Positions 27,906 to 39,817 of a DNA stretch of 64,000 bases are shown here, in pieces. Below the pieces are notes generated by a model. It saw only the letters and a list, made by a program, of their open reading frames with translations. It was not told the DNA's origin and searched no databases. The translations under genes were made by a program, and so were the position numbers. The stretch's first letter is position 1, and every line of letters begins with the position of its first letter. The stretch comes from Escherichia coli (GTDB taxonomy: Bacteria > Pseudomonadota > Gammaproteobacteria > Enterobacterales > Enterobacteriaceae): assembly GCF_050320075.1 (NCBI RefSeq), contig NZ_CP190018.1; one strand, 5' to 3'.

Positions 27906-29432
27906 TCAAAAATAAACCTCACCATCAACCATATATTTGAGAGTACTTATCGCCTGCTGGGCGGATATTATTTTCATTAAAGGATAGTGTTTAAAAACAA
28001 TGCCATTCATAAAATAGATATCACAGGTTTTATTATCTGTATTGATTATGATTTTTTCGAATGTTTTATAGGCAAGTGTACGACATAGCTCTCGCCCATT
28101 TTTACTGGTTAAGTCAATAGCATGAAAATCACCAAGTGAACTCACCGCTTTACTCTTCAAAGTTTTTAATGATACAGAAGCCCTTCGTAATTCCTTATCT
28201 AATACTCTGATTTTTTCTGCTATAGCGGTAACTTCAGGCGCAACAGATAATGCAGCAATTAAATTATTAATTTTCATCTGGAGCTCAATAATTTTCAACT
28301 CTAAAGTTTCATTAGCATCTTTCTTGTTTTCAACTGGTTGGATTTTACTACAATTAAAAAGCAACTCATTAATGATATTATAATCAACCAAATCTCTCTT
28401 TATTGATGGCCTGTCACATCGATGCAGTCTTCTCATCGGACAAACATAATAGCCATGCAAACTTCCAGATACCGCATGAACAATCATGGTATTACCACAA
28501 GCCTCGCACTTCATAACTGTTCGAAGTAGATTTATCAACATAGGATTTTTGCTACTATTGCTAATACCAAAAGGTGCCAACCGAATTTCCTGCACAGCGT
28601 AAAACAAATCATCTGATATGACTCTGGGATAATAGCCAGCGATTTCACTTATTCCTTTACCTCTTGCACGATATGAAGGTACGCATATACCTATCAGAGC
28701 TTTATTCGCTAATAATTTTTCAATTACAGAAGGTCCCCATGCACTTTCTTTTCCTGAGAAATTCTTTACAGCATGATCATTTAAATACTTGGCTATTGCA
28801 TTCAATGAGCGCCTTTCCATCCTGAGTTTAAAAATTAGCTCAATAGTTTTCACCCTGTCGGGGTCTGGAACAAAAGCCGTTCTTTTGTCATCCAATGAGA
28901 GCCATCTCGGACAAGACGCCGTCATAATCGTGCCTGACTCCAGTGCATCCTGCCGTTTTTTCTTCCATGATAATTTAACCCGACTTGACTTTATCTCGCT
29001 TTCTTCATTTGCCCTTTGTGCTATAAGTATGGCTTTTATTAATGAATATGGCTCATTCAATGAGTCAATATTATAGACTGTATTATCGCAAAGAGTTATA
29101 ACATCAATACCGTGATTCAAAATCAATTTCAGACGCTCAATCGCTTCACCGACTTTTTCTCTTGAAAGTCTGTCCAGACTTTCAACTAACAATGTAGTCC
29201 CTGGCAATATATAACCATGTTCTATAGCATCTAAAAATTCCGAAAAAGCTCCTGATTGTGCATGCTTTCCATTGAATGCGCTTAACCCCAAATCTTCATA
29301 CGTTACGGTATCAAGGTAATAATCACTATTTACCTTTAGCCATTCAGTAATAAGCCTTCTCTGGCGGTTTAATGAATCACCAGACATCTGACCTGGTGAT
29401 GAAAATCGCATATATGCTATGGCTTTTTTCAT
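27906..29432 (-). CDS. Large serine recombinase (resolvase/invertase catalytic domain plus recombinase and Cys-rich zinc-ribbon-like domains), DLP12 YbcK type
   Basis: 508-aa ORF MKKAIAYMRFSSPGQMSGDSLNRQRRLITEWL... (catalytic Ser in RFSSPGQ) with downstream CEACGN...CPMRRLHRCDRP cysteine cluster; low GC. Confidence 0.85.
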   Translation of the reverse strand: MKKAIAYMRFSSPGQMSGDSLNRQRRLITEWLKVNSDYYLDTVTYEDLGLSAFNGKHAQSGAFSEFLDAIEHGYILPGTTLLVESLDRLSREKVGEAIERLKLILNHGIDVITLCDNTVYNIDSLNEPYSLIKAILIAQRANEESEIKSSRVKLSWKKKRQDALESGTIMTASCPRWLSLDDKRTAFVPDPDRVKTIELIFKLRMERRSLNAIAKYLNDHAVKNFSGKESAWGPSVIEKLLANKALIGICVPSYRARGKGISEIAGYYPRVISDDLFYAVQEIRLAPFGISNSSKNPMLINLLRTVMKCEACGNTMIVHAVSGSLHGYYVCPMRRLHRCDRPSIKRDLVDYNIINELLFNCSKIQPVENKKDANETLELKIIELQMKINNLIAALSVAPEVTAIAEKIRVLDKELRRASVSLKTLKSKAVSSLGDFHAIDLTSKNGRELCRTLAYKTFEKIIINTDNKTCDIYFMNGIVFKHYPLMKIISAQQAISTLKYMVDGEVYF

Positions 29433-29687
29433 GGTGACACCTGCTAAAGTATGCTTTTATAAACCTTAGTGGTGAGATATGATTTTTGTTTAATTTTTAT
29501 TTAAAAAGACAATTAAGGTCACATTATCTTGAATATACAACAATAATCGTATTGCAATTTTCTTACACCATAATCTTGAAAGCACAAAAGAATGAATAAA
29601 AACTAAAGACATTAACAAAAAGCATAAAACGAGGCCCATATAAATATACGAACCTCCATATTTTAGTCGTTTAAAAACAAATTATTT

Positions 29688-30020
29688 TTAATGTGGCGTG
29701 CTTCGTGACAATAAATTAATAACCAACACACCGGCACAAATCAACATCATGCCTATAATGGCTGGCAGGTCCAATCGTTGGCCGAAAAATCCCCATGATA
29801 GTAAGCTAATCAGGACAATACCGACTCCTGACCAGATAGCATAAGCAATCCCTGTAGGAATATAAGCCAGCGTCTGAGCTAATAACCAGAATGATGCACA
29901 ATAACAAATAATTGTACCAACAGATGGCCATAACCGTGTAAAACCTTCTGAAAACTTCATTAAGGTTGTACCAATGACCTCTGCAAGTATTGCACCACCA
30001 AGATAAATATAAGGATTCAT
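29688..30020 (-). CDS. emrE: Small multidrug resistance (SMR) efflux protein EmrE
   Basis: MNPYIYLGGAILAEVIGTTLMKFSEGFTRLWPSVGTIICYCASFWLLAQTLAYIPTGIAYAIWSGVGIVLISLLSWGFFGQRLDLPAIIGMMLICAGVL... essentially identical to E. coli EmrE (110 aa). Confidence 0.95.
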   Translation of the reverse strand: MNPYIYLGGAILAEVIGTTLMKFSEGFTRLWPSVGTIICYCASFWLLAQTLAYIPTGIAYAIWSGVGIVLISLLSWGFFGQRLDLPAIIGMMLICAGVLVINLLSRSTPH

Positions 30021-30087
30021 AGCATATTCTTTCCTGTTCAAACTGGAGAGAATTGTACTACAGTTTGAACTCAACTCACCTGTTTCA

Positions 30088-32904: not shown

Positions 32905-33008
32905 TTCCTATTGGTATTACAATGAATGGATAATAGCAATGCGTATTAATCCAATCAATAGCAAAACGTGTTTTGACCATCAATACGCAAGCGTATAAAT
33001 TAAAACTT
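32905..33008. promoter_or_regulatory. Immunity-region divergent promoter/operator region (OR equivalent) with ATACGC/GCGTAT half-sites including the palindrome ATACGCAAGCGTAT (32983..32996)
   Basis: AT-rich 104-bp spacer between divergent cro-like and cI-like genes; repeated half-sites seen in sequence; operator assignment is inferred. Confidence 0.5.
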
Positions 33009-33701
33009 ATGAAAAAAGAAACTCTTGCTGATCGCTTAAACCTAGCGATGGAACAATCTGGAATGTCTCAAGGCGCTCTTGCAAAGGCGTCTGGCGTAGC
33101 TCAACCCACAATCTGGAGACTGACAAGCGGCAACGCACGCGGCTCAACAAAAATTGTTGAAATAGCTAATGCATTGGGTGTTCGAACAGAGTGGCTCTCA
33201 TCAGGCATAGGCCCGATGAGAAATGACGGTCAACAATCAGGGAAGCCTGCTGTCAACCATTCCAAATACTTCAAAATTGACGTTCTTGATATAGAAGTCA
33301 GTGCTGGGCCGGGTGTCATCAACCGTGAGTTTGTAGAAGTCCTACGCTCGGTTGAGTACTCGTTTGACGATGCTCGTCACATGTTCGATGGCAGGAAGGC
33401 AGAAAATATCCGCATCATTAACGTACGCGGTGACAGCATGTCAGGAACGATCGAACCAGGTGATCTTCTGTTCGTTGATATCACTGTTAAATCTTTCGAC
33501 GGTGATGGTATCTATGCGTTTCTGTACGACGACACAGCCCATGTAAAGCGCCTGCAAATGATGAAGGATAAGCTGCTGGTTATCTCTGATAACAAGAGCT
33601 ACTCACCGTGGGACCCGATCGAAAAAGACGAAATGAATCGGGTATTTATATTTGGGAAAGTTATTGGGAGTATGCCACAGACATATAGAAAACATGGGTA
33701 G
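33009..33701 (+). CDS. CI-type prophage repressor (N-terminal HTH, C-terminal S24 LexA-like autopeptidase domain)
   Basis: MKKETLADRLNLAMEQSGMSQGALAKASGVAQPTIWRLTSGN... plus C-terminal RGDSMSGTIEPGDLLFV...VKRL motifs and a candidate Ala-Gly cleavage site (VSAGPG); not lambda cI. Confidence 0.88.
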   Translation: MKKETLADRLNLAMEQSGMSQGALAKASGVAQPTIWRLTSGNARGSTKIVEIANALGVRTEWLSSGIGPMRNDGQQSGKPAVNHSKYFKIDVLDIEVSAGPGVINREFVEVLRSVEYSFDDARHMFDGRKAENIRIINVRGDSMSGTIEPGDLLFVDITVKSFDGDGIYAFLYDDTAHVKRLQMMKDKLLVISDNKSYSPWDPIEKDEMNRVFIFGKVIGSMPQTYRKHG

Positions 33702-33807
33702 ATTATTAATGACAGATTTCATCAAGATAACCAGATGATGTTTTGGTGAGACATGCTGACATCCTCATAATTTATAGAATGGATGTTTCAAGCAGAGCTT
33801 AAGGTAT

Positions 33808-35415
33808 ATGGATATGTCAAAAAAAATTTTTGAATTCAAAAATTACCCAATAGTCTTTATTGGCTCAGGCATTTCAAAAAGATATTTAGAGAACTACCCA
33901 ACGTGGGAAGAGCTATTAAACGAGTATTGGAAAATAACAAATCCCACAAATGATTTCTATAGTTATCTTTTAACAATAAAAGAATCACATAAAAATAACA
34001 GTGATAATGATATCGATCATAAGATTTATACAGAGGCAGCAAGTAAAATTGAAAATGATTACAATCTATTGTTTAGGACTGGCAAATTAAAATTAAATGG
34101 ACTAGATGCCAAGAGGGTTTTTAGTGAAGATATTTCACCATTTAAATACGCCATATGCCAAAGATTTTCTAATAACACAATCAGAAAGGATGTAAATCTT
34201 GATGAATTAGCATCATTTAAAACATTAATAAAAAAGGCCAAGATAATCATCACTACAAATTATGATGCTTTCATAGAAAATTTACTTCAAGAGCAAAATG
34301 TAACTCCAAAACTCTATATTGGAAATAATGGTTTTTTCGAAGATACTATTGGCTGGAGTGAGTTATACAAAATACATGGTGATATAAAGGATCCACACTC
34401 AATAATCATAAATAAAGATGATTACGAAAAATATGACAACAAATCTATACTCATTAGTGCCAAGATACTATCTAACATGATTAAAAATCCAATAGTTTTT
34501 CTTGGATATTCTTTAACTGACAGGAATGTAAAGAAACTTCTTTCTGATTTTTCCTCACAACTACCTAGAGAAGATGGTCGAAAATCAGCTGAAAGAATAA
34601 TTTTGATTGAATATAAAGAGAATGAACAGGAAGTAGTACCAAAACAGATTACCGATCAACAGCTACAAATTACATATACATCTGTTAAAACAGATAACTA
34701 TAAACAGATCTATGATGAGATCAGTGCTGTTGATGAAGGGCTCTCACCTTATGATGTTTTAAGGTATCAAAGAGCCATTAAAACACTTATCATTAATGAG
34801 GGTGAAAAAGGGCACTTAGATACTCTATTGGTTTCACCTTCTGACTTAGACAGACTTGAAGAAAGTGTTAAACAAGGAAAAAATTTAGTTGTTGCTCTAG
34901 GCGATAAAAAGTATGTATTCACACAAGTTAAAGAAATAAATTATCTTGAAGACTACTTATTTAATAAAAATGAAATATCTAATAAATTAGCTATAGATTT
35001 CATATTAGGTTCAGTAAACTCATTACAACTTCCATTTTCAAAAACTATAACCTCATGTAATTTGAAAGAGTTAAGTTTGCCAGCTAAATATGTGTTAAAA
35101 CTAAATCAACGCATTGAACGCCACGGAAAACTAGACGACTTGCTCAATAAAATCACCTTAGATAAAATCAATGCAAATAAAATTTACACCAACATCAAAG
35201 ATATAAAGGATGCAAAGTTCAAAAAGTACAAAGAATTGTCTATAGTCATTAAGAACATAAAAAATATCCCCAAAGAGGAGATTGAAGATTATGTTAAAAA
35301 AGAAGCGTTTGTTCAATTCAAGGCATGCGACGTTGACAATTTAAAAACCCAGTATAGGAAACTATTTCTTGCCTACGACTTGTTGATTCATGGAAATGTT
35401 GAAAAGATAAATTAA
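33808..35415 (+). CDS. SIR2-like (sirtuin-family, SIR2_2-type) domain protein with uncharacterised C-terminal half; candidate single-gene anti-phage defence protein in the rexAB-equivalent position
   Basis: 535-aa ORF, about 28-30% GC; motifs FIGSGISK (res 17-24), IIITTNYD (N151), YKIHGD (H190), IVFLGYSLTD (229-238) with Asn-His spacing of 39 as in defence-associated SIR2 domains; directly downstream and co-oriented with the repressor. Confidence 0.7.
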   Translation: MDMSKKIFEFKNYPIVFIGSGISKRYLENYPTWEELLNEYWKITNPTNDFYSYLLTIKESHKNNSDNDIDHKIYTEAASKIENDYNLLFRTGKLKLNGLDAKRVFSEDISPFKYAICQRFSNNTIRKDVNLDELASFKTLIKKAKIIITTNYDAFIENLLQEQNVTPKLYIGNNGFFEDTIGWSELYKIHGDIKDPHSIIINKDDYEKYDNKSILISAKILSNMIKNPIVFLGYSLTDRNVKKLLSDFSSQLPREDGRKSAERIILIEYKENEQEVVPKQITDQQLQITYTSVKTDNYKQIYDEISAVDEGLSPYDVLRYQRAIKTLIINEGEKGHLDTLLVSPSDLDRLEESVKQGKNLVVALGDKKYVFTQVKEINYLEDYLFNKNEISNKLAIDFILGSVNSLQLPFSKTITSCNLKELSLPAKYVLKLNQRIERHGKLDDLLNKITLDKINANKIYTNIKDIKDAKFKKYKELSIVIKNIKNIPKEEIEDYVKKEAFVQFKACDVDNLKTQYRKLFLAYDLLIHGNVEKIN

Positions 35416-35919
35416 ATAAACGCCCCGTACAAAGCGATGGCGGGGCTAATAAGTCATTTATGTATCATTTAGCAACTGACTAAAAAAATACACATAAGAA
35501 CTCAGACTACCAATATTCGATTAAATTTGCTGCCAACCTACCGAGCTCACCACAACCCGATGCCCCTCTGTCACGAGGCACATTAAAGCTGTACAAATTT
35601 CAGCCACACCAATAAGTCTTCATACTCTTTTTTATAAAAATTCATTTAATTATCAATCAGAACAAGTATATCAAACATTATCAATACTAATTGCTATTGA
35701 CTACACCAATAGCTATTGCTATTGTCATGCTATTGCATCGATGTTGGTATCACAAAATTTATAACTTCACCGTTGCGATGACCGCTTAGATCCGCAGCTT
35801 GAATTTCAGCAGGCTCCGGGGAGTGCGAGGGGTGAAGCGGACGCGTGAACGTCGGTGTGACCAGCTGAAATCAACTCAACACTTCATACCTCAGTCGCTT
35901 CAACGAGGCGACTTAGTTA

Positions 35920-36209
35920 TGACAACCGGCGGCCATCCACCGCCTGAATACGCGCAGAAGTCTCTATATGTTCAGCAGCCCAGCTTACGGGCAGGAGTTT
36001 TTATGGTTCATCAACATTACGGAACGCAGACCGTTAATCGAGGTGCGGTCATGCCAGGAATGCTGGTCAAACACAAAGATGGTACCTGGACTGCATCAGC
36101 TAATTTACGCGGACGGCTATATCTGCATCGCGGCATCGAGCGCACTTATACCCGTGATTTGCTCGTGGAAGTTTTTCTCGACGGACGCGGTAACGGCCTG
36201 AATCACTAA
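35920..36209 (+). CDS. Hypothetical protein (96 aa from ATG; a TTG-initiated 136-aa version starts at 35799)
   Basis: [38 protein letters not shown]... with upstream GAGG; sits where lambda has N-ral-cIII-kil but resembles none of them. Confidence 0.35.
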
Positions 36210-39214: not shown

Positions 39215-39817
39215 TCATTCAGTATCATCACGCGCGGTCTGTGCATATGTCACTACCGCACCTAATATATTAATTTTCTTTTCAACATAGATAATATTAT
39301 CGTACTCATAATTGCCATACGGATAGCAAATGCGAATATTCTCATGTAGATCGGGGTCATCCACCTCAGCTCCAGAACAACTTTTTGAACTACCGGAAGT
39401 ATACCGATACGGTGCAACATAAGACGATGTCTCTCCAGGCAAAAAATAAGTTAGTGTCGTAAGGGGTATAATCAGAAAAAATCCAGCAAATATGCACATC
39501 CCTGCATAAACCTTAAGGTATGCTGACAGACTCTTCCAGCCTCTTTGTTTTACTATCCCCTTCTTAACCCAAAACAGAGATAACAGAAAAGCTATTCCCA
39601 TGCTAAACAGAATGTAATAGTGGGATATACTCTGATTAAGAAACGTGACCCTGTAGATATCTGCCCGCCACCAGAAGAAAAGGAAAATAAAGATCAGCCC
39701 TGAAACTGTCATGCAAATCAAATAAGGATACGAATCTTTTTTCATGTTTAGCGCCCATAAAATTTTTCCTGACCCGGACAAATTTACCATCCATTTTTTG
39801 CGCAGAAAATAGCTCAT
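39215..39817 (-). CDS. Hypothetical polytopic membrane protein (prophage cargo; likely start at the MKKDSY Met, 39745)
   Basis: 200-aa ORF with at least three hydrophobic helices (LICMTVSGLIFIFLFFWW; YYILFSMGIAFLLSLFWV; VYAGMCIFAGFFLIIPLTTLTYFL) and a hydrophilic C-terminal domain; low GC; opposite strand to surrounding early-left genes. Confidence 0.55.
   Translation of the reverse strand: MSYFLRKKWMVNLSGSGKILWALNMKKDSYPYLICMTVSGLIFIFLFFWWRADIYRVTFLNQSISHYYILFSMGIAFLLSLFWVKKGIVKQRGWKSLSAYLKVYAGMCIFAGFFLIIPLTTLTYFLPGETSSYVAPYRYTSGSSKSCSGAEVDDPDLHENIRICYPYGNYEYDNIIYVEKKINILGAVVTYAQTARDDTE

Follow-up and report, generated by a model that had tools for sequence, protein, structure and literature searches.

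A prophage-borne SIR2-family protein of Escherichia coli carries a predicted all-alpha C-terminal domain found only within its own protein family

We examined a SIR2-family gene carried by a lambdoid prophage of Escherichia coli, within a window of 64,000 nucleotides (the whole stretch of DNA analysed, taken from contig NZ_CP190018.1 of RefSeq assembly GCF_050320075.1). The open reading frame (ORF) running from 33808 to 35415 on the plus strand was confirmed as real from the ORF list and encodes 535 amino acids (aa); the RefSeq start is the ATG situated 6 bases downstream, at 33814, which gives the 533-aa product WP_167784488.1, annotated as a "SIR2 family protein". The gene follows a cI-like repressor gene on the same strand after a gap of 106 bp, in which no terminator-like site was found, and is itself followed by an inverted repeat with a promoter-like site and then by kil, gam, bet, exo, xis and int (coordinates of the features are collected in Table 1). 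Its GC content is 0.296 (29.6%) compared with 0.46–0.52 for the neighbouring prophage genes, and it was therefore acquired from a low-GC source. An initial annotation of the window had pointed to the C-terminal half of the protein as an unrecognised Lys/Asn/Ile-rich domain, possibly a sensing or regulatory module. The observation is real and its interpretation plausible; the boundaries and composition given for the domain need correction. Fusions of SIR2 effectors to sensor domains are well known; this protein stands out as compact, common in prophages and easy to test in E. coli, with a C-terminal fold that has no relatives beyond its own family.

Table 1. Positions of the features discussed, numbered from the first nucleotide of the window (AF2, AlphaFold2; HTH, helix-turn-helix).
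Feature	Coordinates	Strand	Basis or remark
cI-like repressor (XRE HTH + S24 peptidase)	33009..33701	+	RefSeq annotation; directly upstream of the SIR2 gene
SIR2 (Rossmann-type) NAD-binding catalytic domain, aa 1–306	33808..34725	+	Pfam, AF2 model, Foldseek
Asn151 codon (motif TTNYD), catalytic Asn of SIR2 NADases	34258..34260	+	aligns with ThsA N112
His190 codon (motif KIHGD), catalytic His	34375..34377	+	aligns with ThsA H152
Conserved linker module, aa 307–373	34726..34926	+	conservation in relatives, AF2 models
Family-specific all-alpha C-terminal domain, aa 374–535, ~10 helices, putative regulator/sensor	34927..35412	+	AF2 model
Perfect 7-bp inverted repeat GCTATTGactacacCAATAGC overlapping promoter-like TTGACT-17-TATTGT	35693..35725	+	further GCTATTG copies follow, to 35740

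The sole Pfam assignment obtained for the protein was SIR2_2 (PF13289; aa 146–285, E=5.5e-23, model positions 2–137 of 141), and sequence matches to solved structures were limited to aa 141–288, all of them to defence NAD hydrolases (NADases), i.e., ThsA and KomC. The SIR2 domain also contains a GSGxS loop (aa 19–23) and a helical insertion (aa ~50–145), and among 150 full-length relatives N151 was kept in 100% and H190 in 99%. By homology to ThsA, DSR2 and KomC, the domain is predicted to have NADase activity. Its end was placed from a full-length AF2 model (36-sequence alignment; mean predicted local distance difference test score, pLDDT, of 82), in which the alpha/beta fold continues through strands at aa 264–269, 278–283 and 288–295 and a helix at aa 298–306, suggesting a boundary at about aa 306; Foldseek matches of the N-terminal part (DSR2, ThsA and KomC) extended over ~312–327 alignment columns against isolated SIR2 domains. 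The portion outside SIR2, which had been put at ~290 residues starting from about aa 245, is therefore ~230 aa long in the model (aa 307–535).

The C-terminal part was also modelled alone by AF2, from a 94-sequence alignment. Residues 374–535 were then predicted at pLDDT 93–99, and in the full-length model the chain is helical from about aa 374 to 528. Structure prediction and Foldseek comparison, which were among the checks suggested by the initial annotation, thus gave a confident and unassigned fold, and supported neither the start nor the composition that it had claimed. Lysine is indeed more frequent over aa 242–535 than in the SIR2 part (13.3% vs 10.8%), but asparagine (6.8% vs 8.5%) and isoleucine (9.5% vs 11.8%) are less so, and all three residues are common throughout the protein because the GC content of the gene is low. 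The peptide cited as highly charged and of low complexity, KIYTNIKDIKDAKFKKYKELSIVIKNIKNIPKEEIEDYVKKE, was located at aa 458–499 and is 28.6% lysine. Local sequence entropy shows just a slight dip there, at aa 451–495 (3.1–3.3 vs 3.3–3.9 bits per 30 aa), so that the description as low-complexity was not borne out. The lysine-rich stretch falls within helices of pLDDT above 93 and includes the near-invariant N483, and it is therefore not disordered. That the C-terminal region is a functionless, disordered, low-complexity tail, as the entropy dip and the lysine content of aa 458–499 might suggest, is thus extremely unlikely, given the confidence with which aa 374–535 fold when modelled by themselves and the retention of both length and motifs from Enterobacterales to Firmicutes, Fusobacteria and Bacteroidota. 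Disorder with no autonomous fold, the outcome that the initial annotation had named as contrary to its proposal, was not what the models gave.

Relatives of the C-terminal part were sought with a profile of aa 305–535 built from 27 diverse members. Nothing significant was obtained against PDB sequences (best E=0.064, ribosomal protein S8) or Pfam (best E=0.035), and nothing in NCBIfam came near its cut-off (PduO_Nterm reached 13.5 bits against a cut-off of 108), which upholds the statement that no family could be assigned to this part from Pfam, NCBIfam or PDB sequences. The whole protein likewise was without an NCBIfam match. In PADLOC and PHROGs the C-terminal part matched only PDC-S25 and phrog_2695, both of them matched by the entire protein as well: PDC-S25 (PDLC04967) with E=6.3e-236 (aa 1–528 against model positions 1–526 of 528), and phrog_2695 (PHROG 2695, "unknown function") with E=8e-204. 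The remaining weak candidates were judged to be noise or compositional: RBB1NT (Pfam, E 0.035–0.14), HTH_40 and ASCH in single members (Pfam, E >0.04), the S8 match, PADLOC CARF4-PDDEXK (in the K/I/N-rich stretch) together with RmrA, and PduO_Nterm and phrog_38642.

Foldseek comparison with AFDB50 gave 33 matches at E<0.001, all to proteins of ~390–560 aa, most of which carry a SIR2 family or SIR2-like annotation, or to fragments of such proteins; these come from Proteobacteria, Firmicutes and Fusobacteria, with weaker ones reaching Bacteroidota and Campylobacterota. No structural relative of the C-terminal module outside its own family was found in AFDB50, and the only likeness seen for the alpha domain (aa 374–535) is to helical-repeat scaffolds of a generic kind. 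When the C-terminal profile was run exhaustively with HMMER against 1.84 billion representative proteins, 103 matched, all co-linear with the same SIR2 architecture or fragments of it, except one. The exception (P0175, a metagenome representative of 341 aa) has a 147-aa N-terminal fragment, DegT/DnrJ-type aminotransferase-like by eye, joined to profile positions 336–525, and most likely reflects a chimeric assembly or the remains of a deletion. The C-terminal module is thus an invention of this family that invariably comes joined to this SIR2 domain, and the idea of a shuffled sensor domain common to other effectors was ruled out. The description of this part as a sensor or regulatory module therefore stands insofar as it is unrecognised, conserved, folded and restricted to one family; a role in sensing is consistent with the data. 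The new sensor specificity also proposed there goes beyond what the sequence analysis supports.

Conservation is unevenly divided between the two segments that follow the SIR2 domain. In the linker, aa 311–372 (34738–34923) have a mean pairwise identity of 0.48, equal to that of the SIR2 core, and G311, P314, G332, L337, L341, A363 and G365 are kept in at least 95% of the 150 relatives; its recognisable pieces are DEGLSPY, a helix at aa 314–333, GxKGxLDxxLVSP and GKNxVVALGD. The linker was nonetheless poorly modelled in the monomer (pLDDT 35–62 in both AF2 models, with aa 336–372 of low confidence in the full-length one; 44–70 over aa 305–373 when the C-terminal part was modelled alone). Read by eye, its sequence suggests the pattern beta(LLVSP)-alpha-beta(NLVVALGD)-beta. 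Divergence is much faster in the alpha domain, with a mean pairwise identity of 0.31 (0.26 for aa 411–490) compared with 0.485 for SIR2; within it P409 is invariant, Y379, Y383, R517 and D524 are kept in at least 95% of members, and N483 in 92%.

The linker may represent an inter-subunit element or oligomer interface, or it could be a conformational switch. Tetramers or filaments are the active forms of SIR2 NADases such as ThsA and DSR2, and a segment as conserved as the catalytic core that cannot be folded as a monomer is as expected for an inter-subunit element. This raises the alternative that the C-terminal module serves purely for scaffolding or oligomerisation, with infection sensed indirectly through a host or metabolic cue, or with activity controlled by expression level, and with the alpha domain binding no phage component. 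The resemblance of the alpha domain to generic helical-repeat scaffolds, and the failure to find it recombined with other effectors, agree with such a role. However, divergence at the rate seen for the alpha domain would be unusual for a pure assembly interface; moreover, a constitutively active NADase would be toxic in a lysogen, and some control element is therefore needed, for which no partner gene is present. We consider this alternative somewhat unlikely.

Across the family, the alpha domain is mildly basic (median isoelectric point, pI, of 8.8 and net charge +3), whereas the SIR2 domain is acidic (pI 5.1). A basic alpha domain next to an acidic SIR2 domain would suit either intramolecular docking or the binding of an acidic ligand, and is not decisive. 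Taken together with the nearness of the SIR2 domain to ThsA by sequence and a very weak HTH_40 match in one member (E ~0.08), the charge could indicate that the C-terminal domain senses a nucleic acid or a small molecule, the latter in the manner of the SLOG domain of ThsA, which binds gcADPR (glycocyclic ADP-ribose). We regard this as improbable: the net charge is small (range -5 to +12), there is no SLOG, CARF, SAVED or other nucleotide-sensor signature (the sole CARF-type match scored 17 bits and is probably compositional), and no TIR, cyclase or other signal-producing gene was nearby in the contexts examined.

The sites flanking the SIR2 gene help to define where it sits in the immunity region. 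CTATTG/CAATAG half-sites, like those in and after the inverted repeat downstream of the gene, recur in the cro-cI intergenic region at 32908–32962, and the two regions (35693–35740 and 32908–32962) are probably the left operator/promoter (oL/pL) and the right operator (oR) of this immunity type. With the repeat taken as the probable oL/pL, the SIR2 gene is placed, like rexAB of lambda, in the interval from cI to the left operator. A GC-rich hairpin (GCCCCG, 13 nt, CGGGGC) at 35421–35446 lies 6 nt past the SIR2 stop codon; the terminator-like call at this hairpin was for the minus strand only (35436..35421).

The slot from the repressor to kil (33702–36002) is a variable cargo hotspot of E. coli lambdoid prophages. 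Only 165 of the 2238 E. coli genomes matching the region carry the SIR2 gene there. Among the matches listed with both flanks 95–97% identical, the other cargo comprises DUF6932 with a hypothetical gene, an ASCH-domain gene with a hypothetical gene, DUF3800, and a HipA-family kinase with DUF3037, and some of the listed genomes have no insert, with ~1.25 kb between the flanks. The SIR2 gene was present at 99% identity or above in 165 of 5426 complete E. coli genomes (3%), as one chromosomal copy each time, and the carriers include an O157:H7 strain. In E. coli PSJ-14 (NZ_AP027626.1) the gene is interrupted by the insertion sequence IS1: the match falls into two pieces and coincides with an annotated IS1 transposase. 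Many database entries are "partial" copies (e.g., P0043 of 296 aa, with 273 member sequences); inactivated or broken copies of the gene may be frequent.

Two further observations were made on the prophage. A ybcK-type recombinase gene and emrE adjoin ren-P-O (27906–30074), where the GC content between 28 and 30 kb is just 0.36, and this arrangement marks the prophage as lambdoid and DLP12-like. On the minus strand at 39215–39817, between a TraR/DksA-like gene and xis/int, there is a low-GC ORF of 200 aa with several hydrophobic stretches (hypothetical protein WP_001348592.1), which may be another accessory gene.

Homologues of the same length and 41–75% identity extend from Enterobacterales to Firmicutes. 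No nucleotide match to the gene was found in the phage collection; protein homologues in that collection are 27–49% identical and belong to phages of Gram-positive bacteria and to mycobacterial phages. The Morganella prophage homologue lies directly after a cI/S24 repressor gene, those of Streptococcus phages SVep1 and Javan227 between repressor and integrase, and that of a Carnobacterium prophage between ImmA-like/repressor genes and integrase, so that the order repressor-then-SIR2 is seen also in Morganella and Streptococcus prophages. The remaining homologues were beside a serine recombinase gene (Listeria prophage), between lysin and integrase (ORF30 of Lactococcus phage BK5-T), after a PBSX-like lysis cassette (Bacillus velezensis), and next to tail fibre genes at the end of a prophage (Atlantibacter). 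Across nine contexts in Proteobacteria and Firmicutes no neighbour gene was shared beyond generic prophage lysogeny genes, which argues that the protein acts alone. In the Listeria prophage (locus L009, 2154–3113) the homologue lies ~1.9 kb downstream of a gene with a Lipoprotein_Ltp domain, in the same lysogeny module. Ltp is a lipoprotein of Streptococcus thermophilus phage TP-J34 that acts in superinfection exclusion; on that reading, the Listeria prophage would carry two genes of exclusion type in one module.

SIR2 folds also catalyse deacylation and ADP-ribosylation, one homologue (P0038) is named "NAD-dependent protein deacylase" by NCBI, and immunity regions such as the one occupied here are home to regulators too. 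The protein could on these grounds be an NAD-dependent deacylase or ADP-ribosyltransferase that serves prophage lysogeny or physiology rather than defence, with the C-terminal domain selecting the substrate. This is very unlikely, since the protein is a SIR2_2 member whose nearest relatives are defence NADases and not sirtuin deacylases, the gene is patchily distributed in E. coli, is of foreign GC content and is replaced by other cargo at its site, and homologues occupy like prophage moron slots across phyla.

We propose, with moderate confidence, that the gene encodes a single-polypeptide, prophage-borne NADase for abortive infection, in which the C-terminal module is the regulator or sensor. 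The gene would be a moron of the lambdoid prophage, set in the variable slot that corresponds to the place of rexAB, and its position there makes transcription together with the repressor in lysogens probable. Through N151 and H190 the SIR2 domain would hydrolyse NAD+ and so halt the infected cell, i.e., abortive infection, and the linker and alpha domain would hold the enzyme inactive as long as no superinfecting phage has been sensed. The most likely trigger would be a phage protein that binds directly, after which the linker or the oligomeric state would change. The whole would amount to a compact analogue of DSR2. The defence phenotype, the part played by the C-terminal module in sensing and the kind of trigger are what we infer in this proposal. 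It is suggested by the SIR2_2 match, by the retention of N151 and H190 among relatives, by the nearest relatives in both sequence and fold being the defence NADases ThsA, KomC and DSR2, and by the full-length match to PDC-S25, a model from a set drawn from genes within known defence systems. It also draws on the location of the gene in a cargo hotspot, its foreign GC content, and the occurrence of homologues in prophage lysogeny modules or at prophage ends without a shared neighbour. The C-terminal domain folds alone in the models, is always fused to this SIR2 domain and diverges fastest, and its fast divergence is consistent with sensing or regulation, although not decisive. Also consistent with the proposal are the placement of the regulatory domain C-terminal to SIR2 in solved SIR2 defence proteins (SLOG in ThsA, helical in DSR2), which is an argument by analogy, and the finding that no partner gene able to supply a sensor is kept.

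More tentatively, and as something possible rather than probable, the alpha domain and linker may together be a previously undescribed phage-sensing module that binds a phage protein directly and thereby switches on SIR2. The protein would then be the smallest known self-contained sensor-effector of the DSR type, spread as an exclusion gene in the repressor-proximal slot by temperate phages from Enterobacterales to Firmicutes.

Several points weigh against these proposals. The best-conserved non-catalytic part of the protein is the linker and not the alpha domain, which suits a structural or oligomerisation role as well as it does sensing, and the fast divergence of the alpha domain may reflect weaker constraint. 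Our searches turned up no structural relative of the alpha domain with a known binding function and no link between the domain and any ligand, and, unlike typical shuffled sensor modules, it is never fused to other effectors. PDC systems are candidates, treated as unvalidated by others. As a caveat, the probable co-transcription of the SIR2 gene with the cI-like repressor in lysogens is read only from gene order.

Among bacterial immune effectors the SIR2 NADases form a major class, for which the main open question is how each senses infection. The present family is compact and encoded by a single gene, with members in many Firmicutes prophages and in 3% of complete E. coli genomes. Its trigger, once found, would add a new sensor type and would also account for one cargo among the alternatives at the lambdoid repressor-proximal hotspot. 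Testing the gene in E. coli is easy, and its spread by prophages makes it relevant to phage therapy and to phage resistance in dairy and streptococcal bacteria.

Among catalogued families, the protein is a member of both PDC-S25 and PHROG 2695, each matched end to end and each a single-gene family, and it is therefore not an unnoticed protein. PDC-S25 is one of the PADLOC phage defence candidates, a set derived from genes embedded within known defence systems (Payne et al. 2024, bioRxiv 10.1101/2024.01.29.577857). The single-gene definition of PDC-S25 agrees with the absence of a kept partner across the nine contexts. In the literature searched, the sole mention of PDC-S25 is its prediction by PADLOC in an O157:H7 strain, with no characterisation; WP_167784488.1 was unmentioned and an SIR2 gene next to cI uncharacterised there. 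The validated E. coli PD-T4, PD-lambda and PD-T7 systems (Vassallo et al.) gave no PADLOC match, and the Sir2 proteins in that paper belong to other systems.

The likeness to RexAB of lambda is one of position and life style only, both being encoded on the repressor strand of a lambdoid prophage between cI and oL/pL, the interval from which the exclusion system of lambda, which works by abortive infection, is expressed. The proteins themselves share no relationship: RexAB consists of two proteins and depolarises the membrane, whereas the protein here would be a single cytoplasmic SIR2 enzyme. SIR2-HerA (Gao19/Nezha), KomC of KomBC and SIR2-APAZ/prokaryotic Argonaute (pAgo) share the SIR2 NADase fold, with Foldseek TM (template modelling) scores of about 0.6–0.69 on the target and, for KomC, a sequence match of E=9e-8. 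Those proteins are of ~260–400 aa and need an adjacent partner gene, whereas here a C-terminal module is fused instead; no HerA, KomB or pAgo partner gene was found in the contexts examined, and the flanks of the present gene are the cI-like repressor gene and kil.

ThsA (Thoeris type I) has the nearest SIR2 domain by sequence (PDB 6lhx, E=1e-11; PADLOC ThsA1, E=1.5e-21, aa 147–259), with alignment of the catalytic Asn and His, and is similar in length and in order, with SIR2 followed by a C-terminal regulatory domain. That domain is SLOG, a Rossmann-like alpha/beta fold, and no SLOG domain is present here: matches to ThsA stop by aa 253–288, and aa 374–535 model as all-alpha. No ThsB/TIR gene was found near the SIR2 gene in any context examined. 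DSR2 of Bacillus subtilis, also one protein, in which an N-terminal SIR2 NADase precedes a C-terminal region made up wholly of helices, was the best Foldseek match of the full-length model (E=3e-10). Its helical C-terminal domain binds the phage tail tube, upon which the NADase is released, as given in PDB entry titles and cited in PMC11514479. DSR2 is of ~1000 aa, and the present protein, at half that size and with a C-terminal domain bearing no similarity to that of DSR2, does not belong to the DSR2 family; in function, by analogy, DSR2 nevertheless appears to be its closest counterpart.

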